Below, one piece after another: positions 481 through 64,000 of a stretch of 64,000 nucleotides of DNA (position 1 is its first letter; every line of letters begins with the position of its first letter). The position numbers and the translations under genes were made by a program. The notes below the pieces were generated by a model. The model did not search any database. It had not been told where the DNA came from and saw only the letters and a program-made list of their open reading frames with translations. The stretch is from Schmidtea nova (taxonomy: Eukaryota): the NCBI GenBank assembly GCA_044892505.1, contig CM097883.1:351726001-351790000 (forward strand), read 5' to 3'.

Positions 481-815
481 AATAAATTATTCTTGAAAGG
501 ATTTCCTACACGAAATTACAAAGCAATTGAAATCAATGATTTATGGGAAATAGATTTGATGGAAATGATTCCTTACTATAAAATAAATAAAGGATATAAA
601 TATATTTTGGTTGTTTTAAAAATTAAAAAGCCGATTAAGATATGATTAAAATTTTAATTAATTTATAAATAATATTTAAATGTAAGTAAAGAAATTTATG
701 ATAATATGATTTAAAAGGTTATTTCCTTATTATTTCTGTATTTTTTCAATACAAAGTGGCACATATAGAAAGATTTAATCGAATGAAAAATATTTTTATC
801 GTATCAAGTAAGTAA
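481..815 (+). pseudogene. Polinton/Maverick retroviral-like (c-)integrase remnant
   Basis: 481-645 reads FLKGFPTRNYKAIEINDLWEIDLMEMIPYYKINKGYKYILVV (cf. FPRR..V..IDDLWQADLVDM...N.GYKYIL); 748-815 reads QYKVAHIERFNRMK (cf. KASIVERFNRTLK); the middle is deleted. Confidence 0.75.
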
Positions 816-1024
816 ATTTGGATTAATTTTTGACCAAAAACTATTTTTAGTTACAAAATAAATCAAAACATTTAATAACAAGTATTTAATTTGATAAATT
901 TATTACCAAGTACTTAAAATGGATTAATTTTTTATCAAAAAATATAATTAATTTTTATCATCATAATTATTCTAAATTAATTTTGTTTTAATAATTTATT
1001 ATACGTTTAAAATTAAAATTAAAG

Positions 1025-1490
1025 TTTATTTTCTTTAATAAATTTTTCATGTTTTTATGTTTTAACCCTATTTTGTTCGCTATTCAATTCTCACTAGATT
1101 GGTATAAAAATTATTTGATTCTGACAATTTTCAAAATTTTAGAAATTGTGAGAGTCGACCATTTTTATGTGTAGAGTTTGGTTGGATAAGTTCAATTTTT
1201 CACGTTTTTACGTTTTTGACCTTTATTGGTTCGCCATTCAATTCTCAATAGATAAAAATTATTGAAAATTATTGAATTCTGAGCATTTTTTGATTTTTGG
1301 AAATTGTAAGAGACAACCGTTTTTACATGGAAATTTGGTCGTATTAGACAAAACTTTCATGTTTTTACTTTTTGATACTTTTTTTGTTCGTCATTCCATT
1401 CTTAGTAGATTGGTATAAAAATTTTCAATTCTGAGCATTTCTTGATTTTTTGAAATTGTGGGAGTCGACCGTTTTTACATGAAAACAAAT
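1025..1490. repeat. Degenerate tandem repeat, ~160 bp unit x3
   Basis: Recurring ttttgttcgc.attcaattct ... gaaattgt.agagtcgacc.ttttt blocks starting near 1025, 1196 and 1354. Confidence 0.7.
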
Positions 1491-2232: not shown

Positions 2233-3406
2233 CAGTCGCCGCCAATAAATTAGCATCACCTTCAATAAAACCACTATCTTGGGAAATCGAACAAGTAAGA
2301 AGAAAAATATGGGTTATTTTTAAATGCAACCCATATGTCTACAAAGATGAATAATGCAACAGAGGCTTACAGTCAATACAGTCAATATTTTGATGGGAAA
2401 CCACGATTTTTCAGGATATCGGTGATTCCTCTTGGCATAGAAGCCGCAAGTTGTGCACAGTACTGTGGTGTAATGTCTGTGCTCCAGACTTGTTTTATTC
2501 TCTCTTTCAGTTAAGCGGCGCTCTTGGGACGATGAACAGCAACTTTTTTCTTAATGACATTCAAACAGTTCTCAATGATGTTGAGATCTGGTGAATTGTC
2601 AGGCCATTTTTGAAGGAGGGGAATGTTGTTGTCACAAAGCCACTTTTTCACAGATTTCGCAGTGTGGCACGGAGCACCAAACTGTGCAACCCAGAGCCGG
2701 CATGTAGACAGGCAAATGTTCCTGGAGAACATTGAGGTAAACATGGTGGTTGATCGTCGTATTCAATTCAATCGTGATCCAATTTGCATGCTGTTTACAG
2801 AACCGAATTATGTCCAGCAGATTCTTCTTAGACAGCAAGGGCTTCTTGGGTGCTTTATGACATGGCAGCCAATGATTAACTCGGAGCCTCCATTGAATAG
2901 TTCGAATTGATGGTACAACAGGTAGCTCGGCGACTTCTTCTTGAATCTGGCTTGTCGAGGCAAATAGATGACGAACAACCACCCTCATGATGACACTGTC
3001 AGTTCTGCCTGTTGTGCATTGAGGACGGCTACTTCCCTCTCTCCTGTAGTGTGATCCTGTTTCAGATTTCCTCTTCAGTACACGGCTAATGCAGCTTTGC
3101 GAGAGATGCATTCTGGCAGCAATCTGGCGTTGAGAGTAACCCTCCTGGACGAGAATCTCCACTTGAGCGGAGGTTTCTTATGAGCAATCCTTTCTCTTTC
3201 CCATAATACTGTGACAGAAAAGAAACACGGGCTTCACCAGTGTGACAAAGAAATAATGATAAGTCAATGGCCTCAACATTGTCACGAATTCTGCAACCAA
3301 TTAAAACACTTTTCATTCATGTCTGGACTTCCCAAAGTCTATTTTTAGAACATAATTGTATCTATGCGAAATTAACAGAATGATGCTAATTTATTGGCGG
3401 CGATGG
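2233..3406 (-). mobile_element. Tc1/mariner DNA transposon (defective)
   Basis: 26-bp TIRs cagtcgccgccaataaattagcatca (2233-2258) / tgatgctaatttattggcggcgatgg (3381-3406); TA on both flanks; internal transposase. Confidence 0.9.
2382..3162 (-). pseudogene. Tc1 transposase pseudogene (frameshift, stop, internal deletion)
   Basis: N-terminal HTH (GYSQRQIAARMHLSQSCISRVLKR); GAPCHTAK and WPDNSPDLNIIEN motifs; C-terminal SMPRGITDILKNRGFPSKY*; the region with the first catalytic Asp is missing. Confidence 0.88.
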
Positions 3407-54929: not shown

Positions 54930-56090
54930 GTAACAAATCAATTTATTGTGCTCCTTGTCGATTGTTAGGAGGTGGTGGATAGGCCCTGGCAACAACAGGT
55001 TATTCTGATTAGAAAAATGTAACAGAATGTTTATCTCAGCACGAAAATACATCACAACACAGACAGTTAGAAACAGTTCTAAAGCAGCGATTATTAGGAG
55101 ACTCTGCGTCAAATGTGAATGAACTATTAAATTCAGAAACTCTAAAGGAAAAAAATACCATCTTGTACCTGTGTTAACATAGCGCCAACTGCGACGTCGG
55201 ACGCATCTGTGGTTAGACTTAAGGGCAGAGAATACTTTGGATAAGCCAAAGTCTGAATTGATTCAAGTGCTTTTTTAGCTTCGATGAACGCAGCGTCAGA
55301 TTTCTCTGTCTAATTTATAATAGATCGCTTTGATCCCGAATGAGCGAAGTCAAAGGAGCAAGAATATCAGATATCCTAAGTATGAACCTGTGGCAATAAT
55401 TGACTACGCCTATAAAGCTGCGAAGCTGCGTGACAGTTTTTTGTTTTAGAAAAATTTCTGATGGAATTTAAACTTTCAGTTTGTGGATCTATTCCATCAG
55501 CGGATAAGGTGTGTCCCAGAAATTTTACACTTGATTGAAAGAATTGACATTTGGAACGATTTATCTTGAGTTGATGTCGCTCTAAGATTTTAACGAGTTT
55601 ATGTGTTTCGGCATCAAGCGATGCGACTAGGATGTCGTCGACGTAGGCTGCTACATAATCTAGTCCGGATAATATGTGATCGATGTGTCGCTGGAATGTT
55701 TGTGCAGCGTTCCGCAAACCAAAAGGAATTCGCAGGATTTTGAAGAGACCTATAGAAGTGATGACAACTGTTTTTGCACATCGGATAGAGTGACAGGAAT
55801 TAAGTGGTATGTCTTCGCCAGATCGATTGTAGAGAATATTTCGTTACCTATGAATCTGGCTAACGAATCCTTTATAAGAGGCGTTGTATATGATTCGTGG
55901 TGTGTGGTGGTATTTAAACGACGGTAGTCGCCACATATCTTGAAAGAACCGTCTTTCTTAGGGACGAAATGGATCGGAGAGGCCCAATGCGAAGAAGATC
56001 TTTGGATCACTTCTACTTGTAATATTCTGTTTTCAGAAATGTCAATTTTTCTCCGGAGATCGGGCGCAATCTCTCTCTGAGAGGTGGTGA
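54930..56090 (-). mobile_element. Decayed Gypsy RT/RNase H remnant
   Basis: WASPIHFVPKKDG...CGDYRRLN, FGLRNAAQTFQR, YVDDIL, TTDASDVAVGA. Confidence 0.88.
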
Positions 56091-56397
56091 ATTCAGAGTA
56101 AGGATTTGATGATAGAATAAAATAAATTTAACAACAAGAAAAGTATATTTTTTAAACTTCAGTATATTTTAAACAAACGTATTTTTCTCAACAGTTTTTA
56201 ATAAACTATTTCTCTAAAAGTTTTATTTTCTTTTCTTCTTTATTTATATAACGAAATATAATACAACTAATATAATATAAATATTACATTTAGTAATATA
56301 TAAATTGTATCACCACAATACATTTTGGGCAAAGGTAATCTTGTCCTTCATACTATTCCAATCGATCATAAATACCAGCCCAGAATGGTAAATCTGT

Positions 56398-57410: not shown

Positions 57411-58701
57411 TCAACTTAAGTGAAATATAGTAGTTTTTAATTTATTATTTTTCATTATAATAATATCTATTTTTAAGATAAATTGATGTCCGTAGTTCAC
57501 TAGACTGTTCCACCGTGTCTTTGTATCTAAAATTAAAACCTTATCTTCCTGTTGACAGCTTTCTCTAATATACATTTGCAAAATACTGTCATTCTTTGTT
57601 GGCGAATTTCTAAAGATTTTAACGATTTTGCGTATTTTAGTCCGAATAGGTTTAGCAGCGTTACATATGTCTAAGTCTAACCCATTAGGGATTCCTTCAT
57701 CCAAATCACTTTCAGCAGTATCGTTAAGTTCCAATTCATCTTCGCTTCCAAGATTATTTGAGTCCGATCTATATGCTTCTATTTCATCGTTTTGAGTATT
57801 CTTGGGTACTCTTTGGTTTGAGTATTTATTTTTTTATAAAGTATATCTATTACTGCTAATTGTATGTCATGAGCAAAACATAGCTTTTGGTAGTTGGATA
57901 CTAATGAACCTACCTTCAACATCACTCTAGCACCATCCGTAGTCATGCAAACGATGTTTTTTTCTAAATTAATATTGAAATCCTGGAGTTTAGTTTTTAC
58001 TATTATGTTACATTTTTCCGCAGGCATGCTTCCATGAATCCTTACCATCCCTAAACTACAATATTTCGTTTCAGTTATCTTAGGTTCAACAGCGTAATGA
58101 ATATTAATATTAATGTAACGACGGTTTCGTTTTGAAGTCCACTCATCAAATGTAATGCTTACTCCTCCTACTTGTAGTATGGATTTAAGTTCCTTAATCA
58201 AGTTATATTTTATTTTCTCGTAATAACCAACTACAATACTGCGTATTGTGTGAGGTGACTTAGGAATATTTTCGAAACCTCTTGCTGTGAGGGATTTTCT
58301 TAGATCATATGATGAGCAAAATATTCTAAAAGGAAGTCCATCTACTGATGTCAAACGCGCAAGAACAGCAGGTATTGTGTTGTCAATTTTAATCTTTGCC
58401 GTTAGATATGATGTAATTTTCCTTTTGGTATCGCTAATATCTACTCTTTTTAACTGATTTTCCTCGTCTGTTTGTTGATCTAAAATTAATGTTCTCTTCT
58501 GACAATCAATTTTATGTATTTTATTCAAGTGCGTATATGCAGTCCTTTGGTAGACCCCCCAGCTATTTTTAGTATACTCGGACACAACTTACATCTAGCG
58601 GTTTTAGGAGTACTTCCTTGTTCTCGCAAAAAATGTTTCTAAATCGCGGATTCGCTTTCTTATTCCCACTCAATGTATTTTGTAGCTGATTTCGATGCCA
58701 T
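57411..58701 (-). pseudogene. hAT-family transposase pseudogene (BED finger + catalytic region, C-terminus lost)
   Basis: AI*KHFLRE...ARCKLC...HLNKIH; ITFDEWTS; TTDGARVM; CFAHDIQLAV; TRWNS. Confidence 0.88.
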
Positions 58702-59010: not shown

Positions 59011-59718
59011 TGTTGGGGTTAGTATAAAAATCACAAAAGTAACAAGAAATATCAAAATTAATTAAAATGCAAAAATTAATTAAAATTTATCAAAAATGTA
59101 AAATTAATATTCACTGGGGGAAATGGGTATGGTTGAATACCAAATCAAAAGACGAACCCAAAAATAATAATAGAAATTTAATAAGGGGTCCCTAGAAAAT
59201 GTTATTTAATAAAAACAAACTAATGAAAATTAATTAATCGCTCAGTGGGAAACCCGAGACAATGGGAAGCCCGAGGCAATGGGAAACCCGAGCGATGAGG
59301 GAAGCCCGAGCGCAAAGAGACCCGAGAGATCAAAGTCGGGGCAATTAGGAAAAATCCATCCGAGGATATCGATTAAACCTAATTGTTATTTGCGAGAACT
59401 ATAAAAGGCAGCGCAAAACAGATGACGGGGCCGACGAGTTGATAGTTAAAAAAGAGAGCATTAAAAAGATTTGAAAACAAATAAGGAAAGATCCTGAAGA
59501 AATCAAACAGACAAAGTGAGAAAGTATCCTTTTAACTAAAGAGTCAAATCCGAATCCAGCAGAAAGCGTAATTGACCAAAAGCGTGTATTACAAAGATTG
59601 TAATTTGTGTTGATCGTGAATAAAAAGATTGTTCTGTGTTGGGTTCATTGATTTCGATAATTAAAGAGCACGAGGAGTCAGGTCAGTAAACCGATCTAAC
59701 CAGAAAAATAAGCCAACA
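59011..59718 (+). mobile_element. 5' LTR (708 bp) of a large Gypsy-like element continuing beyond the window
   Basis: tgttgg...ccaaca termini, followed by a PBS and gag. Confidence 0.85.
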
Positions 59719-59721
59719 TTT

Positions 59722-59739
59722 TGGTGAGCCCGACGTGAT
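59722..59739 (+). promoter_or_regulatory. Primer-binding site (tRNA-Trp type)
   Basis: TGGTGAGCCCGACGTGAT; 17/18 match to the recalled complement of metazoan tRNA-Trp 3' end (TGGTGACCCCGACGTGAT). Confidence 0.8.
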
Positions 59740-60307
59740 AGAAAGGTCGGTGAAAAATTGTTACGATAATAACCGACGTGATCGTAAGGTCGGTGAGAGC
59801 ATAGTGAAAATATTGAATAATTGGAAAATTGTTACGAGATTACCCGACGTGATAGAAAGGTCGGTGAAAAATTGTTACGATAATAACCGACGTGATCTAA
59901 AGGTCGGTGAAGGAGTGAATCAAAGAAAAGAAGAGATAATTTGCTATAGAAAATTGAATTTGATAAGTAAAGAAAACGATATTAAGTGACTTAATTGAAA
60001 AGTCAGTGAGAAAAGTGTTGAAAAGTAAAATTGAATAATTGTAAAAAGAGAAAATAAAATTTGAAAAGTAAAGAAAACGAGATTAATTGTTGAAGAAAAT
60101 AAAAGTGAAAATAATTGTATCAGTTGAAATAAAAGAGTAAAAAGCTTGAACAGAAAAGAGAGAATCGATAAAAATCCAATTGCCAATAATCAAGTCAAAA
60201 TTAAAACAAAAGGTAAATTTAAAAATTGTAATACTTTAAAATTTAGACGAGAAAAAGTTGTACAAAAGAAATCTTATAATCTTCGAAATAAGAAACAAGT
60301 GGAAAAT

Positions 60308-62446
60308 ATGGCTAGTAATTCAAATAATAATGATCAAATACCCATGTCTACTACTCCCACAAACAATGGTAGTGATTTTGCAAGCTGTCAGAAATTGCCA
60401 GTAGAGCAATACGGAGGAGACCCAATTGATTTTGTTGATTTCATGGCAGATTACTATATGTACGCGACAGCATACGGATGGAGCCAATCAATTATGGTAC
60501 AAAGGTTACCGGTATATTTGAAAGGTGCAGCACGAGAAGCTTGGCAACAGATCGACAAAAGACTTATCGCAAATGATTGGACAAAGCTAAAAGATGCATT
60601 GGCAGCCAAGTTAATTGGTGGCGATATCAAAAGAATAATGCGCCAAAAATTTTACAACCGAGTACAAAAGTCAAATGAATCGGTAAGTGAGTTTGCTTAT
60701 CATTTAACAACTCTTGCAGAAAAAGCCTTTGAAGCGAAACCAGAACAACCTGATGTGACGAAACAAGTGAAAGAATTACTTCAAGATCAATTTCTGTCAG
60801 GAGTAAAAAGAGAGATCAAAAAAGCCCTGTGTTATGTAGATTTCAACAATTTCGATGAATTGATTAAAAAGGCCATGAAGATTGAATTGAATCTCAAAAC
60901 CACACAACAGACAGCCGAATCCTTTGCAATTGTAAATGAAACGAGAGATGAATCAGTAACTCCAGTTAGAGAGACTCTTTTGCAAAAATCAACAAGTCCA
61001 TCACCAAAGTTTAGAGTGAAATTCGAGCCAAGAAAGTCGTCAAACAGCCCAAATGAAGAAAGAGAAAGGCCAATTCAATGTAGTTATTGTAAAAGATTGG
61101 GACATCAAGTAAATCAATGTTGGTTTAAAAACAGCGCTCGAAGAAGCCCAAGTCCTGTTCAGTGTGATAATTGCCAACGAAAAGGGCACAGTAATAGTCA
61201 ATGTTGGTTTAAAAATAATTCGCAACGGAGTCCAAGAAAGATGTGGCCAGATTGGTTGAAAGACAATGTCGAGAAAACCTTCAAGAGAAGGGGCAACATT
61301 GATCAAAGAGCTAGTGATAATATGCAGTGCTATAATTGTGGAAGGAAAGGCCATACTTCACGAAATTGCTTTGCAAGATCGAGATCTCCGTCAACATCAC
61401 CATCACCACAGAGAGATAGAGTAAATCTCCAAGGACAAATTCAATGCCACTCATGCAGAGGAAATGGACACATGGCTAGATCATGCCCAAAGAATAATGA
61501 AAAATTTCAAAGACCTATATTAAAGAAAATCAGATTTCAAAATGATAAATCAAAATTTGATAATGTGGCTTTTGTACAACCCGATGATGCTAACGAAAGA
61601 ATTGAAAAAGAGATAAAGCAAATGGGTAAACGATTGGATAAATTAATGTGTAAATTTGAATCGGACGAAGAAACTGATAACCATATGATGTATGAAACGC
61701 AATCAGAAGGGTCAGAGACAGATATAATGAAGGAAGTAGTAAATGATGAATTAGAAACCGAAAAAATAAAAATGATTTTGTCGAGAACAAAAATTTTAAT
61801 GGAGTCAAAAGTAAAAGAGACGTCAAAAATAATGACAATGCTAAAGAAATTGAGTCAAATGCCGATGAGTATACAAAATTTAAAAAGTGTAATTGAAATT
61901 TGTGCTGAATATCACAATGAGAATTCAAAAGATAAAACTGAAACTGAGAAAATAATGAAAATATTTGGAAAATTGTTCAGAGAGAAAACATGGTTAGATT
62001 TTATTGTTATTGATGTTGTTGATGAAAGTAATAATGATGTGATGTGCATTCGTTGTGAAATAGGAGAGTGCGTAAAGGAATTTAAAAAGAGATTAGAGGA
62101 AAATAGTGGAAAATGGATAAAGGAAGTAAAATTTAAAAATAGATGTTTAAATGACGAGGAAATATTAATAGATTGTGGTATTACACCTGAAAATAAAAAC
62201 AGAGTACAGATAGTATTTATGATTAGAAATAATGAAATAATAAAAGATTATTCACAGAAAATTTGTAGGGAATTAAAAGATATTTTGTGTAAAGGGGATG
62301 CAAATGAAATTATTAGAAAATTAAAATTGATAGAAGAAATTGAAATTGAGAGAGATATTAAATTAGATATTATAGATGCAATAAGGCCACACATGTATGA
62401 AAAATCTAAATATAAAGAAAATTTAAGAAATTTAGTACGACGATAA
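60308..62446 (+). CDS. gag: Retrotransposon Gag with 4 CCHC knuckles and a C-terminal extension containing a ubiquitin-like domain
   Basis: YGGDPIDF..F...Y...ATAYGW...LPVYLKGAAREAW; QKSNESVSEFAYHL; four CX2CX4HX4C; open from 60146, first ATG at 60308. Confidence 0.88.
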   Translation: MASNSNNNDQIPMSTTPTNNGSDFASCQKLPVEQYGGDPIDFVDFMADYYMYATAYGWSQSIMVQRLPVYLKGAAREAWQQIDKRLIANDWTKLKDALAAKLIGGDIKRIMRQKFYNRVQKSNESVSEFAYHLTTLAEKAFEAKPEQPDVTKQVKELLQDQFLSGVKREIKKALCYVDFNNFDELIKKAMKIELNLKTTQQTAESFAIVNETRDESVTPVRETLLQKSTSPSPKFRVKFEPRKSSNSPNEERERPIQCSYCKRLGHQVNQCWFKNSARRSPSPVQCDNCQRKGHSNSQCWFKNNSQRSPRKMWPDWLKDNVEKTFKRRGNIDQRASDNMQCYNCGRKGHTSRNCFARSRSPSTSPSPQRDRVNLQGQIQCHSCRGNGHMARSCPKNNEKFQRPILKKIRFQNDKSKFDNVAFVQPDDANERIEKEIKQMGKRLDKLMCKFESDEETDNHMMYETQSEGSETDIMKEVVNDELETEKIKMILSRTKILMESKVKETSKIMTMLKKLSQMPMSIQNLKSVIEICAEYHNENSKDKTETEKIMKIFGKLFREKTWLDFIVIDVVDESNNDVMCIRCEIGECVKEFKKRLEENSGKWIKEVKFKNRCLNDEEILIDCGITPENKNRVQIVFMIRNNEIIKDYSQKICRELKDILCKGDANEIIRKLKLIEEIEIERDIKLDIIDAIRPHMYEKSKYKENLRNLVRR

Positions 62447-64000
62447 GCAAAGAACTTAGAAAGACTACAATTGAATTGAATCCGTTTACAATAGCATTAG
62501 ATTACGAAGATTATGGTAAAACTGAATATATAGTAGAGCATTGGTGCACAAAAGTTCGGAAATTAAGAAAAAGAGCTGCTGAAAGAATAGGAAAAGATGG
62601 AATTATTATATTTATGTTTAAAAGAGAAAAATTAGATGATGATGAATATTTATTTGATTTTGGATTTGTTCCACAAGAGTTAGATGAAAATGGATATTTA
62701 CGTTTCGATAGTAGAAATGGATATTTGATAAATTGTGTATCGGTGATTAAGGAACAGAAATTTGAATTAATAGACAAATCTGATGGATCAAATACAGACA
62801 GAGAAAATGATGATGAAAATGAGGTTAAAGAAGATAAAGAGATAAACGAAATGGTAAATGATAACGAGGAAACCAAGCAGAATAATAAAGATGAGTATAA
62901 AGTAACAAAAATAGAGGAATTTGAGGAACTTAAAGGCGAAATGAATAATGAAAGTAATATTAAGAAGCCTAGAACCTTATATGAAATAAAGAAAGGTTTA
63001 GTGCGATTGGAACAAGAAGTAGATAAAACCAAAGCATTATTAAAAAGCTTGACTAAAGCAGTATACCCAATGTGTGAAATTGAGATAGATGGAAAATATG
63101 AATTGGGAGGAATAGTAAATGAAGTGAGAAACAGACTCCCTAGCATCATGCGAAGGTTTGGTAAAAATGAAAAATTTTGTGACAAAGATGTAATCGAGAA
63201 ATTAACTAAAAATGGAATTACTACAGAAGTAACATTAATGAGCTTAACTTATGTAATTTTAGAAATTGGTGCTCATAAGATCATGAAATCAGATGAGTTA
63301 GAAAATTTAATAGATACTGCTGCTCGAAATATAAACGAATACTTAATGAGCTGGGTTAAAAAGATTGGAGGTTGGGACAAGTTGATGAAAATGTTTATAA
63401 TAAATGAAAACGAAAGTAATGAAGAAAGTTTACCTCAACAATCGCTAAATGTCAGAGTTAGTCCAGAAAAGAGGAAGACAATACTGTTTCCTTGGGCAAT
63501 CTTTATGATAATTATTTTGTGTGCTGGAATCACACAGGTAACGAGTATGACAACGTATGACTGTTCAAAAACAGAAATGGGGAAAATTTATTCAGTTGTA
63601 GATATGTCAGAGTGTTCAGACGCATATCCAAGAAAATTAAAGATAGAAAATGATGTGAAATATCATGTATATCAAGAATCTGATTTACGACGAACAACGG
63701 TAAGAGAATGTATAGTTAAGCGCACTTCCTTTATATTTTATTGTGGCAAGTGGAGCCATACTTCAATGATAAAAATGTATACAATCCTACGGCCAGTAGA
63801 GGTAATGCCGGAAAATTGCCTCGCTGCTTTTCAAACAGGAGAATTAAAAATAAATTCGGAAATTAAATTAAAAGCAAAGCGAAATCATAGAATTAGAGAA
63901 ACAGTGGTCGTAAAAGGAGTAATGAAACAAGATGGAGATTGTGAAGGAGAACCATACAAAGTAGATGGGAAGATAATCAAACAGTCTGTAGTAATAGAGG
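62416..64000 (+). CDS. ORF2 (runs off the window; absent from the ORF track): Ubl - acidic/coiled-coil - Bcl-2-like - hydrophobic signal/anchor - chuvirus-like glycoprotein
   Basis: Manual translation is stop-free from 62416 to 64000, in the -1 frame relative to gag; WVKKIGGWDKL; FPWAIFMIIILCAGI; YDCS...ECIVKRTSFIFYCGKWSHTS...CLAAFQTGEL...GDCEGEPY. Confidence 0.85.

Follow-up and report, generated by a model that had tools for sequence, protein, structure and literature searches.

Introduction

Planarian Burro/GYPSM1 polyproteins carry a Ubi2/SUMO-like motif (PF11976) before a BCL2-like motif, and their env sits between gag and pol in the same frame; Burro has been proposed to interfere with apoptosis and ubiquitination (accessible sections of PMC6431247). 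Burro is also mentioned in PMC11410931 and PMC8532177, the available text of which gives no domain detail. A second point of reference is provided by Smed_errantivirus_1 and _2, described in the accessible part of PMC13524379 as 14.8-kb HSV/gB-type GAG-ENV-POL errantiviruses of Platyhelminthes.

Here we report on a 64,000-nucleotide stretch of the Schmidtea nova genome (assembly GCA_044892505.1, contig CM097883.1, positions 351,726,001 to 351,790,000 of the forward strand; hereafter the window), for which a first-pass annotation had described two ubiquitin-like (Ubl) domains flanking the junction between Gag and a second ORF. The element found there resembles Smed_errantivirus_1 and _2, as far as these are documented in the available text, in its Ty3/gypsy pol, a gB-type env between gag and pol, a size of ~15–16 kb and many recent copies; 98 of 118 residues in its Env stretch are the same as in Smed_errantivirus_1, by a count made by eye on the one printed row. 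With Burro/GYPSM1 it shares a single polyprotein made up of a Gag with CCHC knuckles, a Ubi2/SUMO-like part, a BCL2-like part, an in-frame env and PR-RT-RH-IN (PMC6431247, in the sections accessible).

Results

The element and its polyprotein

Inspection of the neighbouring genome stretches revealed a multi-copy Ty3/gypsy LTR element of ~16.3 kb between LTR ends, with both LTRs and the Ty3/gypsy order PR-RT-RH-IN present. The 3' LTR lies ~15.6 kb downstream, beyond the window, and is 97.5% identical to the 5' LTR. The domain order is Gag, four knuckles, Ubl1, Ubl2, Bcl-2-like domain, Env, protease, reverse transcriptase (RT), RNase H, integrase and accessory frames. The features lying in the window are as follows:

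59011..59718, + strand: 5' LTR (TG...CA), with a 4-bp target-site duplication
59722..59739, + strand: primer-binding-site-like stretch directly after the 5' LTR, called from its sequence and presumably of tRNA-Trp type
60308..60733, + strand: polyprotein start (first Met) and Gag capsid core (PF03732, frame residues 128–202)
61079..61486, + strand: four CCHC zinc knuckles (nucleocapsid), limits transferred from a sister copy
61748..61987, + strand: helical domain H1, first half of unit 1; a putative four-helix bundle with weak homology to H2
61988..62227, + strand: Ubl1, integral ubiquitin-like domain; no di-Gly, Lys/Arg at the I44 position
62240..62469, + strand: helical domain H2, first half of unit 2; four predicted helices, broken in the window copy
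62430..62450, + strand: copy-specific frameshift, absent from all 40 sister copies covering the site
62479..62754, + strand: Ubl2, predicted beta-grasp; loop of ~14 residues before the last strand, no di-Gly
62755..63054, + strand: acidic, fast-evolving linker and short helical segment
63055..63408, + strand: Bcl-2-like domain (profile against the PDB: Bcl-2/Bcl-xL, E 1.4e-6)
63475..63555, + strand: hydrophobic segment, predicted from hydropathy to be an internal Env signal peptide
63499..64000, + strand: start of the HSV/gB-type Env (PF24664); the frame continues outside the window, where PR, RT, RNase H and integrase follow

Both of the ubiquitin-like peptides picked out in the first-pass annotation are present; the four-helix domain predicted before each of them, and the Bcl-2-like domain after Ubl2, are additions to it. 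As read in the window, Ubl1 ends a 772-aa frame (60,128–62,446) that holds the retrotransposon Gag core and the CCHC knuckles, whilst Ubl2 stands near the start of a second frame, which opens at 62,416 and leads into the PF24664 fusion glycoprotein (E-values of 7e-24 and 2.6e-58), a gB-type env placed between gag and pol. Gag begins with Met-Ala, without a hydrophobic N-terminal segment; hydrophobic segments were found between the Bcl-2-like domain and Env (one) and at the end of Env (one or two more). Searches for the family returned 946 first-look candidates in one case and 1,349 in the other; 40 of the former and 150 of the latter were scored, and open frames of 3,427–3,442 aa were present in 18 of the 150 scored copies. 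We hold the identity and architecture of these domains and of the polyprotein with high confidence.

A number of further features were observed around these parts. The 5' leader (window 59,729–59,910) contains a 68-bp direct repeat (97%) that duplicates the primer-binding-site-like stretch. Just upstream of the 5' LTR lies a decayed hAT-like transposase fragment (window 57,411–58,588, − strand; DUF659, E 8e-5, below cut-off), and at 55,376–56,127 (− strand) a frameshifted reverse transcriptase fragment (RVT_1) from another retroelement. Two accessory frames are located downstream of integrase, outside the window (620–1456 and 2408–3247 of the downstream stretch); one accessory frame has a C-terminal hydrophobic segment, and one weakly resembles ISG20-type exonucleases (E 0.14).

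The Gag/ORF2 junction is a lesion of one copy

The placement of the two Ubls on either side of a Gag/ORF2 junction did not survive comparison with sister elements. In a first comparison, both parts were in one frame in 19/19 sister copies. Removal of eight duplicate loci and of the window's own copy left 41 distinct copies, 40 of which cover the break site. Within this set, which consists of the best-scoring copies and is not a random sample, both Ubls share one frame in 36 of the 40, other indels occur in four, and the window's break near 62,440, which falls inside the helical stretch separating the two Ubls, recurs in none. The interval named in the first pass (62,000–62,760) contains no N. 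The frameshift is private to the window copy, and both Ubls belong to one polyprotein of ~3,400 aa; as a lesion confined to the window copy, the break marks no real Gag/ORF2 boundary.

Programmed −1 frameshifting, with Gag-Ubl1 on one side and a Ubl2-Bcl-2-Env-Pol fusion on the other, would agree with the second frame being −1 relative to the first, and a slippery-type heptamer does occur in phase at 62,428–62,434, just upstream of the break. The same heptamer is, however, present in 35 of the 40 sisters, 36 of the 40 need no shift, and six such heptamers are found in the 712 codons of this A/T-rich frame. Moreover, the break cuts through a predicted helical domain, and the window copy is decayed, with several further stops and a frameshift downstream, beyond the window. 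We consider programmed frameshifting almost certainly wrong for this locus, and for the family it is refuted by sister copies that stay in frame despite the shared heptamer.

Sequence and fold of the ubiquitin-like domains

In Pfam and PDB searches the single Ubl1 and Ubl2 peptides of the window gave no ubiquitin match. Profiles built from natural copies did give matches, the best being polyubiquitin for Ubl1 (E 0.0066, with the Ubl1 matches weak as a whole, E 0.007–1.5) and the UHRF1 Ubl domain for Ubl2 (E 0.31), whilst 34 of the 47 PDB matches to a joint Ubl1+Ubl2 profile were ubiquitin-like. PF11976 was the commonest Pfam match (9/28 rows), and no single ubiquitin-like subfamily stands out among the matches. 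Judged by these profiles, the likeness is above chance for the Ubl families, though not for the single window sequences.

The model of Ubl2 (pLDDT 84.6), made without any ubiquitin in the alignment, is a beta-grasp that superposes on SUMO, ISG15 and ubiquitin with an rmsd of 1.5–2.2 Å (Foldseek and VIA; 1.5–2 Å for SUMO and ISG15), and the helical half took no part in these fold matches. A single-sequence AF2 model of both Ubls was of low confidence (pLDDT 42.6), with the strands and helix of Ubl1 in the expected order, and a Foldseek search with it returned nothing meaningful. Ubl1 and Ubl2 are nevertheless homologous to each other (hhalign P 96–97%), and the beta-grasp fold expected in the first pass is predicted directly from the model for Ubl2 and by homology to Ubl2 for Ubl1.

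We aligned eight representatives with a ubiquitin copy from the same genome. The equivalents of the core residues F45, L50, L56 and D58 are F/Y, L/M, L and D in 8/8. At the I44 equivalent the eight have M, R, R, Y, Y, K, K and R; the L8 equivalent is polar in all of them, its column sitting in a gapped loop, and the mapping of the V70 equivalent of Ubl2 is unreliable. Neither Ubl1 nor Ubl2 is followed by a di-Gly in any of five families (A–E), which makes them non-conjugatable and bears out what had been proposed from the window copy. Both Ubls are integral domains, and neither modifiers nor canonical ubiquitin mimics.

Comparison of substitution proportions gave pN 0.23–0.30 against pS 0.34–0.53 for Ubl1, pN 0.15–0.23 against pS 0.56–0.71 for Ubl2 and pN 0.43–0.47 for the linker after Ubl2, these being uncorrected proportions from three pairwise comparisons with pS near saturation. 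By this measure, Ubl1 and Ubl2 are under purifying selection; conservation of capsid and Env is far above theirs (83–92%). That the likeness is due to chance, or that the domains are neutral passengers, would be in keeping with the failure of the single window sequences to match ubiquitin and with an Atlas score of just 0.80, which amounts to a lead. The confident beta-grasp model, obtained with no ubiquitin in its alignment, the excess of pS over pN and the retention of Ubls in six families all speak against this explanation, which we regard as highly improbable. A 5.8-billion-protein set, searched at near and at longer lengths between 280 and 2,550 aa, yielded no relative; as the polyproteins are longer, this is weak evidence.

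A helix+Ubl unit and its duplication

As a predicted four-helix domain stands before each Ubl, the unit is helix+Ubl, and the two Ubls are separated by a helical domain of ~80 residues. The survey of sister elements suggested in the first pass found, in addition to the shared frame described above, that the number of units varies in the same genome: three families have two units and another three have one. Families D and E (frames of ~3,000–3,080 aa), which surfaced through a Bcl-2 search, have a single Ubl with an upstream helical segment at each of 14 loci, as read from fetched stretches, one of which begins inside the Ubl. In a further family, one helix+Ubl unit stands immediately before the protease. 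At C1:119,230,000-119,260,400 and C1:300,690,000-300,720,300, a high-copy unit (1,295 BIR candidates) combines a helix+Ubl-protease-ankyrin frame with two genes, one RING-TRAF-MATH and the other an IAP-like BIR-RING gene of 399 aa.

The units align over ~160 residues with few gaps. In the tree, unit 1 and unit 2 each cluster across families A, B and C, and the pair therefore predates the A/B/C split; support for the order of groups is 62/50 with long branches, so that one and two units are not separated as the ancestral state. The homology of Ubl1 and Ubl2 fits the duplication origin raised in the first pass, whilst that of the helical halves H1 and H2 is marginal (scores of 15.9–19.6 versus shuffle maxima of 14.8–16.0). 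The simplest reading is that the pair probably arose through tandem duplication of the whole helix+Ubl unit. Because homology of the helical halves is marginal, the Ubl alone may have been duplicated instead; alternatively, D and E may have lost a unit.

In the PDB, the only matches to the helical half were designed helical repeats and unrelated chains. A candidate likeness to the TFIIS N-terminal domain (TND) returned a weak signal (hhalign P 2–7%, scores of 16–19 versus shuffle maxima of 10–13), and none of the 53 PF08711 matches fell in a long element frame. It is decidedly unlikely, in our view, that helix+Ubl represents a mobile planarian retroelement module in which a degenerate TFIIS-N-terminal-like (integrase- or transcription-factor-binding) bundle is joined with a SUMO-like domain, the module occurring twice in one errantivirus lineage and ahead of the protease in another, and linking the capsid precursor with the ubiquitin/SUMO or chromatin machinery of the host. 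Elsewhere in the genome, C1:216,191,207-216,252,340 holds a tandem array of >25 copies of the TFIIS-N/Med26 domain (PF08711) at ~1.2-kb spacing.

Possible roles of the Ubl domains

Our overall reading, held with moderate confidence, is that two integral Ubls, each following a predicted four-helix domain, lie in a single gag-env-pol polyprotein, and are likely to be tandem-duplicated and to serve as non-conjugatable cytosolic binding modules. Going by hydropathy, the first hydrophobic segment would act as the Env signal and keep Gag-Ubl-Ubl-Bcl-2 anchored to the membrane on its cytosolic side. The cytosolic Ubls, beside the Bcl-2-like domain, could then engage or decoy host ubiquitin/SUMO enzymes, an outcome of which might be to favour cell survival and element expression. 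The proposal that the Ubls are host adaptors binding or decoying ubiquitin/SUMO-pathway proteins draws on context, namely the Bcl-2-like neighbour and the TRAF-like and IAP-like genes adjoining a related unit in another family; it is tentative, and we would put it a little below an even chance. Because the I44 patch, the commonest ubiquitin-receptor surface, is lost, any host binding would need a different face.

A purely structural role, with helix+Ubl units assisting folding, acting as spacers or forming a matrix-like layer that separates capsid and membrane anchor in a polyprotein of unusual order, and having no specific host partner, is rather unlikely, even though the conserved positions are those of the buried core (the F45, L50, L56 and D58 equivalents) with varying surfaces, one unit and two units are both tolerated, and a Gag lacking a hydrophobic N-terminus leaves the sole membrane tether downstream of the Ubls. 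In another family a related unit immediately precedes the protease, which indicates that the unit is not tied to capsid, and surface motifs of Ubl2 are kept across families, with 46/92 columns invariant.

We also considered a built-in late domain, by which the Ubls would mimic Gag-fused ubiquitin and recruit ESCRT for budding. Gag-fused ubiquitin can substitute for late domains, an activity that requires ubiquitin L8 and I44 (accessible part of PMC2958808). The element carries Env, and upstream of it PTAP and PPxY are absent and no YPxL is common to all five families; the residues found here at the I44 and (gapped) L8 positions nevertheless weigh against such mimicry, which appears distinctly improbable. 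The host-adaptor reading is made testable by small, isolated domains and, if true, would mean that the Gag-Env-Pol of planarian errantiviruses contains accessory domains aimed at ubiquitin and apoptosis, comparable to the accessory genes that complex viruses carry.

A separate ubiquitin-Gag fusion repeat

A different high-copy repeat (e.g. C1:489103871-489104083 and C1:575870881-575871087) encodes a near-canonical ubiquitin that keeps its di-Gly and is fused in frame before DUF1759, which we take to be a BEL/Pao-type Gag. Upstream of the fusion lies either a fragment of Hsp70, accompanied in one case by a fragment of RNA polymerase Rpb1, or a fragment of Hsp90. The search behind this observation gave 2,223 first-look PF11976 candidates, 150 of which were scored, and some are host polyubiquitin. 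Host deubiquitinases would be expected to cut the fusion, freeing Gag, and this repeat may exceed the tandem Ubls in interest.

Discussion

Amongst cellular proteins, ISG15, FAT10/UBD, OASL, the Rad60/NFATC2IP SLD and the UHRF1 UBL share the beta-grasp fold with the domains described here and are their best sequence and fold matches; unlike them, the element's Ubls have no di-Gly, are only 10–22% identical and are separated by a helical domain rather than arranged head to tail. With respect to errantiviruses, ubiquitin has no mention in the main text of PMC13524379 or in the seven supplements searched.

The comparison with Burro, as documented in the accessible sections of PMC6431247, is closer. 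The window element is smaller (16.3 kb and ~3,400 aa versus >30 kb and 4,873–5,140 aa), has four CCHC knuckles where Burro has two or three, and contains two Ubls where the Burro motif is named once. Between PR and RT, Burro has a dUTPase-like region by HHpred and the window element a ~200-aa spacer with no Pfam match. Burro also carries MATH, BIR and ankyrin cargo, for which the scanned frames of the window element gave no Pfam match; a MATH search returned no high-copy long frame. By domain order and Env type we class the element as a gB-type GAG-ENV-POL errantivirus, laid out like Burro but not Burro proper, because the giant size and the MATH/BIR/ankyrin cargo are absent.

The present analysis corrects the gene model to one polyprotein with no Gag/ORF2 boundary, gives structural support to a Ubl known in the accessible literature merely as a profile match, and documents a helix+Ubl unit number that varies among families of one genome. 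No report of two Ubls or of a helix+Ubl unit in these elements was found in the literature covered, in which PMC6431247 and PMC13524379 alone proved relevant and the scope of which excluded Repbase and Grohme et al. 2018 with its supplement (Burro-2 to -4). The first-pass remark that Ubls are unusual in retrotransposon Gag holds for retrotransposons generally but not for the planarian group, given the PF11976 motif of Burro. The surprise is limited to that extent: a Ubl in planarian errantivirus-type polyproteins is already in print (PMC6431247, in the part accessible), and to this the doubled helix+Ubl unit adds a modest new detail.
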